DNA of 64,000 nt from Escherichia phage KEP1: the sequence record PP047755. The stretch is one strand, 5' to 3'. Every line of letters starts with the position of its first letter. Positions within the stretch are counted from its first letter, which is position 1. The translations under genes were made by a program, and so were the position numbers. The notes below the pieces were generated by a model. That model did no database searches. It saw only the letters and a list, made by a program, of their open reading frames with translations, and had not been told where the DNA came from. Below, one piece after another: positions 56,402 through 57,058 of the stretch.

Positions 56402-56479
56402 TGGTGTTCCAAGACGGATTCGAACCGTCACTAGTGCAAGGTTTGAGCTTGCATCCTCTGCCAATTGGGATACTGGAAC
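56402..56479 (-). tRNA. tRNA, short-variable-arm scaffold, anticodon read by eye as CAA (atypical)
   Basis: T-arm GACGG-ATTCGAA-CCGTC (rc), acceptor 7 bp, anticodon stem GCAAG/CTTGC, loop CUCAAAC. Confidence 0.45.
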
Positions 56480-56480
56480 A

Positions 56481-56555
56481 TGGTACTCACTAAAGGACTT
56501 GAACCTTTTTCTTCATCTTGTAAGGGTGGTGTTTTACCATATAAACTAAGCGAGT
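56481..56555 (-). tRNA. tRNA, anticodon possibly UAC (Val); anticodon stem has two mismatches
   Basis: T-arm AAAGG-ACTTGAA-CCTTT (rc), acceptor ACTCGCT/AGTGAGT, D-stem GTTT/AAAC. Confidence 0.4.
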
Positions 56556-56651
56556 ATGAAAGAGGTCTGAAGTTGTGCCGCTAACTCAACTCCGTGGGAT
56601 TTGTTACGGTCTTCAGTTGACTCAAAGCGGTCTTTCACTTGACCTCTGAAT

Positions 56652-56727
56652 TGGTGCTCCCACAAGGATTCGAACCCTGATAAGTTGCTTACAAGGCAAC
56701 CGTAATAGCCAATTATACGATAGGAGC
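56652..56727 (-). tRNA. tRNA-Thr (anticodon UGU)
   Basis: Anticodon stem GTTGC/GCAAC, loop CUUGUAA; T-arm and acceptor pair. Confidence 0.65.
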
Positions 56728-56734
56728 ATTAATT

Positions 56735-56809
56735 TGGAGCATCCAGAGGGAATCGAACCCTCAACATCAGTTTGGAAGACTGTAATTTTCCCGTTTAAAC
56801 TATGGATGC
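56735..56809 (-). tRNA. tRNA-Gly (anticodon UCC)
   Basis: T-arm GAGGG-AATCGAA-CCCTC (rc), anticodon stem CAGT/ACTG, loop CUUCCAA. Confidence 0.65.
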
Positions 56810-56815
56810 ACTAAT

Positions 56816-56891
56816 TGGTGGAGTCACTGAGAATTGAACTCAGTTCCCAAGTTTGCAAAACTCGAATTTTAACCATATAAACTATGACCCC
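56816..56891 (-). tRNA. tRNA-Ala (anticodon UGC)
   Basis: Acceptor GGGGTCA with G3:U70 pair (Ala identity element), anticodon loop UUUGCAA. Confidence 0.65.
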
Positions 56892-56897
56892 ATTGTT

Positions 56898-56973
56898 TGG
56901 TACAGGTGGAGGGAATTGAACCCATCGTCTTACTGATTAAGAGTCAGCCGCATAACCATTTTGCTACACCTGC
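56898..56973 (-). tRNA. tRNA-Lys (anticodon CUU)
   Basis: Anticodon stem CTGA/TCAG, loop CUCUUAA; acceptor ACAGGTG/CACCTGC. Confidence 0.6.
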
Positions 56974-56980
56974 ATTAATT

Positions 56981-57058
56981 TGGTAGGAGACAAGGGATTC
57001 GAACCCTCAAACACCAACTTCTAAGGATGGTAGGTTTACCAATTACCGTCAATCTCCC
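56981..57058 (-). tRNA. tRNA, short-variable-arm scaffold, anticodon read by eye as UAG (atypical)
   Basis: T-arm AAGGG-ATTCGAA-CCCTC (rc), acceptor GGGAGAT/GTCTCCT with G-U pairs, anticodon loop CUUAGAA, one U-U mismatch in stem. Confidence 0.4.

Follow-up and report, generated by a model that had tools for sequence, protein, structure and literature searches.

We analysed a window of 64,000 nucleotides (nt), given as one strand, from Escherichia phage KEP1 (record PP047755). The window contains an array of tRNA genes at 54274–59864 on the minus strand, and we focused on three leucine tRNA genes in this array that have short variable regions, and on two noncanonical tRNA genes, one of the arginine (UCU) type and one a candidate for tryptophan (CCA). 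ARAGORN called 25 tRNA genes in the array, all on the minus strand and together covering 19 amino acids, with tryptophan as the sole amino acid lacking a called tRNA. The called genes were supported by the Rfam tRNA model (RF00005, gathering score 29 bits), and small open reading frames (ORFs) are interspersed among them, as are the two noncanonical genes. A megablast search with positions 54000–60000 matched 406 phage records; the best matches were Felix O1 (95.3% identity) and the felixounaviruses SP22, D4 and SME50 (96–98%). Judged by this similarity (95–98% identity to the tRNA-bearing regions in Felix O1, SP22 and further felixounaviruses), the region is a Felixounavirus tRNA array.

The first of the leucine genes, tRNA-Leu(CAA), lies at 56402–56479 (minus strand). 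It is 78 nt long including an encoded CCA, has its anticodon at 56443–56445 and A73, and scored 43.7 bits with the Rfam model. Its D stem is 3 base pairs (bp) long (UCC/GGA) with the D loop CAAUUGGCAGA, its variable region is the 6-nt ACUAGU, and it occurs with 96–100% identity in ~250 Ounavirinae records that annotate it as tRNA-Leu. The second, tRNA-Leu(UAG), lies at 56981–57058 (minus strand) and is likewise 78 nt including CCA, with the anticodon at 57021–57023, a 5-nt variable region (UGUUU), A73 and an Rfam score of 40.0 bits; its D arm is 1 nt longer than those of the other two. The third, tRNA-Leu(UAA), occupies 55470–55548 (minus strand, 47.5 bits) and is 79 nt including CCA, with the anticodon at 55512–55514, A73 and a 7-nt variable region, GUUAUGU. 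ARAGORN drew a cloverleaf for all three genes, and each Rfam score was above the gathering score. In the CAA and UAG genes the acceptor stems are 7 bp, the T stems 5 bp, and the T loops UUCGAAU.

An earlier note on this DNA, made from the letters alone, had read the CAA and UAG genes as tRNAs with normal acceptor and T arms and with the anticodon loops CUCAAAC and CUUAGAA. The ARAGORN calls bore this out in full: both genes are real, at 78 nt each, and the same leucine anticodons were assigned. The note's figure of 4–5 nt for the variable regions agrees with the ARAGORN drawings, which show 5 and 4 nt for CAA and UAG, but not with our own parse, which gives 6 and 5. It had also contrasted the pair with a canonical type II tRNA-Leu(UAA) at 55470–55558. 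The gene there ends at 55548, tRNA-Gln(UUG) begins next after it at 55551, and its variable region is the 7-nt one described above; the contrast was mistaken, and all three leucine genes of the array are short.

Genes were parsed segment by segment, the anticodon and the 3′ end serving as fixed points. This parse replaced a MAFFT alignment of the short leucine tRNAs, in which three sequences were mis-registered. The parsed variable regions of 5, 6 and 7 nt fall below the type II form, which has a variable region of at least 10 nt folded as a stem-loop. In this phage's own serine and tyrosine tRNAs the variable regions measure 15–21 nt, and in the serine and tyrosine tRNAs of the arrays that we compared they measure 11–21 nt. 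The D arm of the leucine genes consists of a 3-bp stem, a mismatch at 13·22, and a loop that reads A14 A15 U U G18 G19 N A20a N A. The three anticodons fit the leucine patterns NAG or YAA. All three genes carry U8, A14, A15/U48, G18G19, A20a and A73, the identity set of Escherichia coli leucyl-tRNA synthetase (LeuRS). Inspection of identity elements, which the earlier note had suggested as a check on its two genes, thus found the complete set in both.

Comparison across phages showed that these structures are maintained. In a set of 17 distinct short leucine tRNAs, drawn from 8 phage lineages, pairing was 100% in the acceptor and T stems, with two to five types of pair at nearly every position of those stems. 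The D-stem pairs 10–25 and 12–23 were likewise 100% paired, and position 13·22 was always C·A or G·A. Compensatory changes keep the stems across Demerecviridae, Ounavirinae, Vequintavirinae and Streptomyces phages, and covariation in all four stems of these 17 homologues disposes of the suggestion that the genes were misfolds drawn by eye. The genes are 77–79 nt long with CCA, or 75 nt where CCA is not encoded. T5-like phages have short Leu(UAA) and Leu(UAG) genes, two 77-nt forms being present in phage OSYSP; Erwinia phage phiEa21-4 has short genes with the anticodons CAA, AAG and UAA; and a Seunavirus also has the short form. Xanthomonas phage X1 carries one short Leu(CAG) gene alongside two type II leucine genes. 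Streptomyces phage Zeigle has a short-arm Leu(UAG) at 2995–3069 of the stretch retrieved, with a D arm like that of the coliphage genes.

We then scanned the IMG/VR viral contigs with a pattern that combined the leucine-type D loop, U33, A35, a variable loop of 5–7 nt and GGUUCGA. At least 97 distinct sequences passed a cloverleaf filter, and 96 of the 97 matches listed have leucine anticodons (UAG 43, CAA 22, UAA 21, GAG 4, AAG 4 and CAG 2, with a single UAU). A73, U8 and a terminal U in the variable loop, none of which the pattern specified, were present in 97/97 of the listed matches. These results point to short-arm tRNA-Leu as a coherent, leucine-specific and widespread phage subclass. 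A blastn search with tRNA-Leu(UAA) returned no match in 5,426 complete E. coli genomes and thus gave no support to a recent host origin.

Two observations on individual genes may be recorded here. Felixounavirus Leu(UAG) genes that otherwise hardly differ carry one of two unrelated anticodon-stem alleles: the window gene has CCAUC/GUUGG, resembling CCGUC/GUCGG of T5, and Felix O1 (3373–3450) and VpaE1 (3901–3978, both in the stretches retrieved) have UCUCG/CGAGA. Gene conversion or diversifying selection could account for the two alleles. The type I tRNA-Leu(CAA) on the chromosome of Streptomyces coelicolor might be related to phage genes such as that of Zeigle.

The short-arm genes are not new as genes. 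The GenBank entry for Felix O1 (AF320576) lists tRNA-Leu for UUA, UUG and CUA at homologous places and with the same lengths (78–79 nt), and hundreds of relatives also annotate tRNA-Leu at these genes. Our literature search found no paper that discusses the missing arm of phage tRNA-Leu.

Across 41 long ORFs of the window (39.2% G+C), UUA, UUG and CUA account for 27.5%, 12.8% and 10.6% of leucine codons, together 51%. In a codon-aware alignment with the terminase, portal and gp43 of phiEa21-4, these three codons face leucine at 32/48 positions, and the phiEa21-4 partners are often encoded by CUU, CUG or CUC. The other 16 positions hold mostly methionine, isoleucine or valine in the orthologues.

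Work on the host enzyme bears on whether the tRNAs can be charged. E. coli LeuRS depends on A73, the A15–U48 Levitt pair, G18G19, A20a and contacts of the D loop with the T loop, and is independent of the anticodon and of the long arm; arm-less variants are still active (PMC9976931). The type I tRNA-Leu(CAA) of S. coelicolor coexists with type II leucine tRNAs under a single LeuRS (PMC6614811). For three orthologues in Shigella phage Sf14, the isotype models of tRNAscan-SE put leucine first in every case (PMC12482277). A tRNA-Leu from phage OSYSP (MF402939.1), with its anticodon swapped to CGA, is reported in a 2026 preprint to decode TCG as leucine in E. coli (PMC13596443), and in the 45 kb of OSYSP that we scanned with ARAGORN, the two 77-nt short forms were the only leucine tRNAs.

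We consider it very probable that the three genes are functional phage-encoded leucine tRNAs that form an isoacceptor set with the anticodons UAA, CAA and UAG, and we infer that LeuRS charges them. The long variable arm is exchanged for a loop of 5–7 nt, with the type II leucine D arm, U8, A73 and U48 retained. The host LeuRS would be expected to leucylate the short-arm tRNAs, because the bacterial enzyme reads A73 and the D/T elbow (A15–U48, G18G19, A20a) and not the variable arm or the anticodon. Once leucylated, they would supply UUA, UUG and CUA, which this phage of 39% G+C uses heavily. The published use of the OSYSP tRNA-Leu, from a T5-like phage, lends indirect support to the expected charging. 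Tolerance on the part of LeuRS explains why loss of the arm is possible. The seryl- and tyrosyl-tRNA synthetases (SerRS and TyrRS) use the long variable arm of their tRNAs, and the retention of long arms by the serine and tyrosine tRNAs is consistent with that use.

Several observations weigh against this interpretation. E. coli LeuRS failed to charge the S. coelicolor type I tRNA-Leu, and the enzyme is described as charging type II tRNA-Leu only (PMC6614811). The isotype scores of Sf14 Leu(UAG) were 67.4 for leucine, 65.7 for Ile2 and 63.4 for lysine (PMC12482277), which is a narrow margin. The window's own Leu(UAG) has an irregular D arm as well as a mismatch, U30·U40, within its anticodon stem, and single-sequence minimum free energy (MFE) folds of the three genes gave no clean cloverleaf (z = −0.3 to −1.9). 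The argument from OSYSP, moreover, assumes that the remaining 66 kb of that genome holds no other tRNA-Leu.

Why the arm was lost is a separate matter from whether the tRNAs work. An explanation compatible with functional leucine tRNAs is that the loss was selected, as an escape from host nucleases or other factors that recognise the type II arm, and was not neutral streamlining. Phage tRNAs do escape anticodon nucleases through sequence changes (PMC10264068). The two wholly different anticodon-stem alleles of Leu(UAG) look like diversifying selection. The eukaryotic Schlafen nucleases select type II tRNAs, which also counts in favour of such an escape. However, this analysis identified no bacterial nuclease with a preference for the variable arm of tRNA-Leu, the serine and tyrosine tRNAs of the same phages keep their arms, and evasion of nucleases received no support in the Sf14 study; with LeuRS ignoring the arm, its loss may simply have been tolerated. 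We regard selection by nucleases as doubtful, and as speculation at this stage.

Decay of the genes into something outside translation, as pseudogenes, nuclease decoys or processing signals, is much less probable still. Phage tRNA arrays do hold remnants: a weak tRNA-like sequence at 58879–58943 (minus strand) in this array scored 24.7 bits, below the gathering score of 29, has mismatches in its acceptor stem, and is probably a decayed tRNA gene. The stem mismatch and odd D arm of Leu(UAG) could be taken in the same sense. Decay is nevertheless hard to reconcile with compensatory changes that preserve every stem across distant phage families, with the conservation of anticodon and T loops, of identity nucleotides and of the encoded CCA, or with the reported decoding of TCG as leucine by a derivative of an OSYSP tRNA-Leu (a short form, according to our scan). 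Least credible of all is the earlier note's suggestion of recoding, by which the genes would be charged with another amino acid and the phage would read UUG or CUA differently from its host: a class I shape is atypical for a bacterial leucine tRNA, the Sf14 Leu(UAG) scores lie close for Ile2 and lysine and E. coli LeuRS rejected one Streptomyces type I tRNA-Leu, but the anticodons are sense anticodons, the LeuRS identity elements are complete, with A73, U8, U48 and the leucine-type D loop in 97/97 listed relatives, the three codons align mainly with leucine in orthologues that use other leucine codons, a reassignment affecting 51% of leucine codons would rewrite every protein, and tRNA-Leu of OSYSP, where the scan met short forms only, is reported to insert leucine in E. 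coli. The genes are therefore best described by another of the note's options, unusual isoacceptors: genuine tRNA-Leu, by ARAGORN and Rfam, with a class-I-like short variable region.

The earlier note had also pointed to two further genes of about 80 nt with noncanonical D regions, and both proved to be as described, at 57415–57497 (83 nt) and 57998–58079 (82 nt). The latter lacks a D hairpin altogether and the former has an aberrant D region.

The gene at 57998–58079 (minus strand) is of the tRNA-Arg(UCU) type and is 82 nt long with CCA. It was supported by covariation and by an Rfam score of 31.7 bits, and was not called by ARAGORN; the Rfam alignment fits it to a tRNA by omitting the D arm and placing 20 inserted nt after the anticodon stem. 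Our parse places the 5′ strand of the acceptor at 58073–58079, U8 A9 U10 at 58070–58072, a helix strand CUC at 58067–58069 and a single A at 58066, followed by the anticodon arm (58049–58065) with the anticodon UCU at 58056–58058. Next come an 8-nt linker, CGUUAACC, at 58041–58048, the partner strand GAG at 58038–58040, a D-loop-like segment, UAAGUGGAGUAU, at 58026–58037, the T arm (58009–58025), the 3′ strand of the acceptor (58002–58008), A73 at 58001 and CCA at 57998–58000. The D hairpin that a canonical arginine tRNA has 5′ of its anticodon arm, with a 10–13/22–25 stem and G18 G19 A20 in the loop, is absent, with UAUCUCA alone separating the acceptor and anticodon stems; the GAG partner and the UAAGUGGAG segment both lie 3′ of the anticodon arm.

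The determinants of E. coli arginyl-tRNA synthetase (ArgRS) are C35, U36, A20 and A or G at position 73. The gene has C35, U36 and A73, and an A follows its GG that may be equivalent to A20 in three dimensions. AGA is the commonest arginine codon in the same 41 ORFs (42% of arginine codons) and aligns with arginine at 21/28 orthologue positions, and this gene, which ARAGORN skips, is the only one in the window with a UCU anticodon. Its single-sequence MFE fold gave no clean cloverleaf (z = 0.20).

Full-length homologues with 83–100% identity were found by blastn in 262 phage records of very diverse groups, among them Felixounavirus, the 348-kb Asteriusvirus 121Q/PBECO4, Justusliebigvirus, Vequintavirinae, a 110-kb Klebsiella phage and a Vibrio phage. 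The labels given to them are "tRNA-OTHER" and "tRNA-Leu(taa)", and some have none. The UCU element of Escherichia phage 121Q (NC_025447, 73585–73666) is one of those labelled tRNA-Leu(taa), and the unusual fold has almost certainly misled the annotation there. We considered tRNA-Leu(UAA) as an identity for the window gene as well and rejected it, as covariation in the anticodon stem and its 7-nt loop centres on UCU.

In an alignment of nine homologues the acceptor, anticodon and T stems covary, and almost no variation is seen in the linker UAUCUCA or in the 22 nt that follow the anticodon stem. The Vibrio copy differs within these parts: its CUC is changed to CAC and its first downstream GAG to GUG. 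A scan of viral contigs with the helix positions left free returned 33 distinct sequences, with the combinations CUC/GAG, CAC/GUG, CGC/GCG and CUU/AAG. A gapless alignment of 31 sequences was 98.9% paired for the resulting four-helix structure, a level reached by 0/500 shuffles, and slid controls gave 33–50%. The helix 11–13/40–42, which encloses the anticodon hairpin, was 100% paired, its middle pair being U-A in 27 sequences, A-U in 2 and G-C in 2. Pairing of the 5′ CUC with the second GAG (that within GGAG) was tried and rejected: the CAC, CGC and CUU variants covary with the first GNG only.

Because the enclosing helix covaries, the order of the element can be read, from aligned sequences, as acceptor 5′ strand, U8 A9 U10, D-stem 5′ strand, one nucleotide, anticodon arm, a linker of 3–8 nt, D-stem 3′ strand, U A A Y U G G N N(N) A .. 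U, T arm and acceptor 3′ strand. The segment 3′ of the enclosing helix (UAAKUGGAG in the window gene) resembles a D loop, A14 A15 Y16 U17 G18 G19 N20 .. A21, running into the last part of a variable loop (..U48). We defined the class by a 3-bp C-N-C/G-N′-G helix enclosing the anticodon hairpin, by UAAYUGG(A/U)..A..U, and by a normal T arm and acceptor stem. The window gene has all of these features and scored 101.2 bits with a covariance model of the class. The model also found a second member, a 75-nt gene with the anticodon ACG and a 3-nt linker, on IMG/VR contig 3300037466_002593 (2689–2763). On that contig it lies in the same array as a rewired gene of the UCU type (4029–4107) and adjoins a canonical Arg(UCG) gene.

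A more general scan of viral contigs kept U33 fixed, left the anticodon free and let the pattern end in UGGA or UGGB, where B is any base but A. The UGGA scan returned at least 81 distinct members, and the anticodons among the matches listed were UCU (58–60), CCU (11), ACG (10) and UCG (1); the lone non-arginine member listed has a UAU anticodon and carries GGU. The UGGB scan returned at least 61 distinct members, with U after GG in every match listed and the anticodons UAU (54), GAU (6) and CAU (1). A73 was present in each UGGB member inspected. For 42 UGGB sequences the structure was 94.3% paired and the enclosing helix 100% (C-G 22, U-A 16, G-C 2, U·G 2). Thus, among the matches listed, the base after GG tracks the class of the anticodon, being A with arginine and U with isoleucine. 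A20 is a classical determinant of ArgRS. Since isoleucyl-tRNA synthetase (IleRS) also reads the D-loop corner (PMC9976931), this tracking argues that the rewired RNAs would be aminoacylated tRNAs and not debris.

The class appears to belong largely to viruses. Its structure filter was passed by 1/120 matches listed in 596 Gb of bacterial and archaeal genomes and by 142/240 in viral contigs; with 16 specified bases searched in 596 Gb, mostly chance matches are expected, and the comparison is a ratio, not a census. In 46 viral loci ARAGORN missed the rewired element 45 times, and a separate canonical Arg(UCU) was present in only one locus. Rfam 15 has no family for the class. A literature search of limited extent found no paper on a D-arm-swapped tRNA, and an earlier description is possible.

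We tentatively propose that these genes form a large, essentially virus-restricted class of functional tRNAs with a rewired cloverleaf, in which the two D-stem strands lie on either side of the anticodon arm and the helix they form is connected to the T stem by a D-loop mimic; the proposal is plausible, and we stop short of calling it probable. The short helix may stack on the anticodon stem in inverted orientation. The partners for the core tertiary contacts (U8, A14, R15, G18, G19, A21, Y48 and the T loop) would all be available, and the RNA could then adopt a normal L shape with a different connectivity of the backbone. The dependence of the base after GG on the anticodon would imply recognition by ArgRS and IleRS.

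A more conventional explanation of the window gene is that of the Rfam alignment: a broken tRNA-Arg(UCU) that has lost its D arm and gained junk in its variable region. The missing ARAGORN call, the Rfam score and the single-sequence z value all agree with a broken gene, as does the presence of a canonical Arg(UCU) in Sf14 and phiEa21-4 instead, in Sf14 at the same place in the array. Yet no part of the gene is more conserved than the supposed junk, and pairing of the 5′ CNC with the downstream GNG is complete (100%) across U-A, A-U, G-C and C-G variants. Relatives number more than 140 distinct sequences from viral contigs and 262 records of cultured phages, from several families, and among the matches listed the anticodons are strictly arginine with GGA and strictly isoleucine with GGU. 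In addition, only 1/46 loci has another Arg(UCU), even though AGA makes up 42% of the window's arginine codons. We judge a broken gene to be improbable.

Two features flank the rewired gene. Directly 3′ of it is an ORF at 57635–57982 (minus strand) that we label HNH-endonuclease-like from the annotation of relatives; its match to Pfam HNH scored 18.6 bits, below the cut-off of 21.4. HNH genes also adjoin the rewired element in Klebsiella phage Roth50 and Escherichia phage warpig, and such neighbours may help to explain the spread of the element between unrelated phage families. Immediately 5′ of the gene, at 58081–58152, is an inverted repeat of ~16 bp, AACAUUCUAAAGGGUA...UACCCUUUAAAAUGUU, which gave weak microRNA-like Rfam matches on both strands and could function as a terminator, as a signal for processing or as a target of an endonuclease.

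The second noncanonical gene, at 57415–57497 (minus strand), is a candidate tRNA-Trp of 83 nt with CCA, whose CCA anticodon lies at 57455–57457. ARAGORN did not call it, and its Rfam match is weak and tRNA-Sec-like (23 bits). It has A1-U72, G73 and the CCA anticodon, which are features of E. coli tRNA-Trp. A linker of 9–10 nt, GAUGUUAAGA, precedes a D hairpin, CUC-UAAGGCAU-GAG, and the pentamer GUUAA is common to this linker and the 8-nt linker of the rewired arginine gene. The D stem CUC/GAG becomes CAC/GUG in Sf14 and Sf17 and CAU/GUG in Arno18, and the anticodon and T stems also covary among these phages. The anticodon helix is shifted by one (26–30/40–44) with a conserved C31·A39 (or C·C) mismatch, which leaves what is effectively a 9-nt loop. 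Position A49·C65 is always mismatched, and G8 could pair with C65, positions that do not vary among the sequences compared. This suggests an arrangement with an 8-bp acceptor and a 4-bp T stem; the MFE fold is cloverleaf-like and has the 8-bp acceptor.

The gene is present in 235 Ounavirinae records and is almost never annotated. Sf14 is reported to carry tRNAs for 19 amino acids. Because tryptophan is the sole amino acid missing from the KEP1 array, and because Sf14 too was reported with 19, a working tRNA-Trp is the likeliest reading of the gene, one that we hold with moderate confidence. It would complete the phage's set of tRNAs for 20 amino acids, and would be a second, Ounavirinae-specific noncanonical tRNA.

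Elsewhere in the array, between tRNA-Gln(UUG) and tRNA-Arg(ACG), an ORF at 55635–56192 (minus strand) encodes a predicted membrane protein of 185 amino acids with a DUF7338 match (E = 8e-62). The same protein occupies the same spot in relatives.

We concluded that the leucine observation from which this work started is real but ordinary, in that the genes are known and annotated phage tRNA-Leu genes that belong to a common short-arm subclass. They remain instructive: short-arm tRNA-Leu, with at least 96 genes in viral contigs, contradicts the statement that tRNA-Leu has a long arm everywhere but in animal mitochondria (PMC9976931) and would contradict the statement that E. coli LeuRS charges type II tRNA-Leu only (PMC6614811), and a tRNA-Leu from OSYSP, with short forms only in the 45 kb scanned, underlies engineered E. 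coli strains with a swapped code (PMC13596443). The more interesting object is the rewired arginine and isoleucine class, which is widespread in phages and missed by standard tools. If our proposal is true, a strand topology other than the usual one can also yield the tRNA L shape, and the class would offer a natural test of how far that topology is tolerated by the ribosome, by modification enzymes, and by ArgRS, IleRS, RNase P and EF-Tu. Annotation of the ARAGORN type would then miss the AGA and AUA decoders of many phages, and their decoding capacity would be systematically under-counted.

Comparison with known systems places each of these genes. The leucine genes of Felix O1 are 88–100% identical to those of the window, which are alleles of them. 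Those of T5 and BF23 resemble the window genes in length (77–79 nt), the 5-nt variable loop, the leucine-type D arm and A73; Leu(UAG) of T5 and BF23, at 77 nt, is 82–84% identical to the window Leu(UAG) over its full length, and both have the U30·U40 mismatch. The anticodon stem of the window Leu(UAG) is in fact closer to the T5 version than to that of Felix O1. The D arms of E. coli leuZ, leuX and leuW (87, 85 and 85 nt) are collinear with those of the window genes, and these three genes and T4 tRNA-Leu have the D loop AAU(U/C)GGNAGA, U8, A14, A15/U48, G18G19, A73 and anticodons as in the window. They differ in the variable region, which is a stem-loop of 13–15 nt in the E. coli and T4 genes and 5–7 nt and unpaired in the window genes. 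A short variable loop is shared with the type I tRNA-Leu(CAA) of S. coelicolor and with animal mitochondrial tRNA-Leu. The S. coelicolor tRNA is reported not to be charged by E. coli LeuRS, whereas the OSYSP-derived tRNA-Leu is reported to work in E. coli.

The tryptophan candidate is best set beside the 8/4 cloverleaves of the allo-tRNA type, for which serine, histidine, cysteine and selenocysteine types are reported, phages being among the sources (Mukai et al. 2017, PMC5389517). It may share with them an 8-bp acceptor and a 4-bp T stem; it is set apart by its tryptophan anticodon, by G73, by the C31·A39 mismatch and by 9 nt of linker ahead of the D hairpin.

For the rewired arginine gene, the closest counterparts are the canonical Arg(UCU) tRNAs of Sf14, phiEa21-4 and OSYSP, which have the identical anticodon loop, CUUCUAA, and a similar anticodon stem and T arm. 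Sf14 and phiEa21-4 carry the canonical gene instead of the rewired one, and that of Sf14 sits at the equivalent place in the array, between the isoleucine and Ser(UGA) genes. The GGA (G18 G19 A20) of the canonical tRNA is kept in the sequence of the window gene, where its A may stand for A20. In contrast to the canonical form, the D-stem strands of the window gene flank the anticodon arm, with the D-loop-like sequence placed after that helix and ahead of the T stem. Animal mitochondrial tRNA-Ser(AGY/AGN) lacks a D hairpin, and the connectors on either side of its anticodon stem pair, which lengthens the anticodon arm. The window gene is like it in having no separate D hairpin, in the pairing of these connectors and in an anticodon that would read AGN codons. 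However, the phage rewired RNAs are of cytoplasmic type, with 77–79 nt before CCA, and their anticodon and position-20 base would point to arginine or isoleucine and not to serine. Another difference is that they keep a full D-loop mimic (A A Y U G G N .. A) along with an ordinary T loop, with which the elbow contact should persist in the rewired RNAs.

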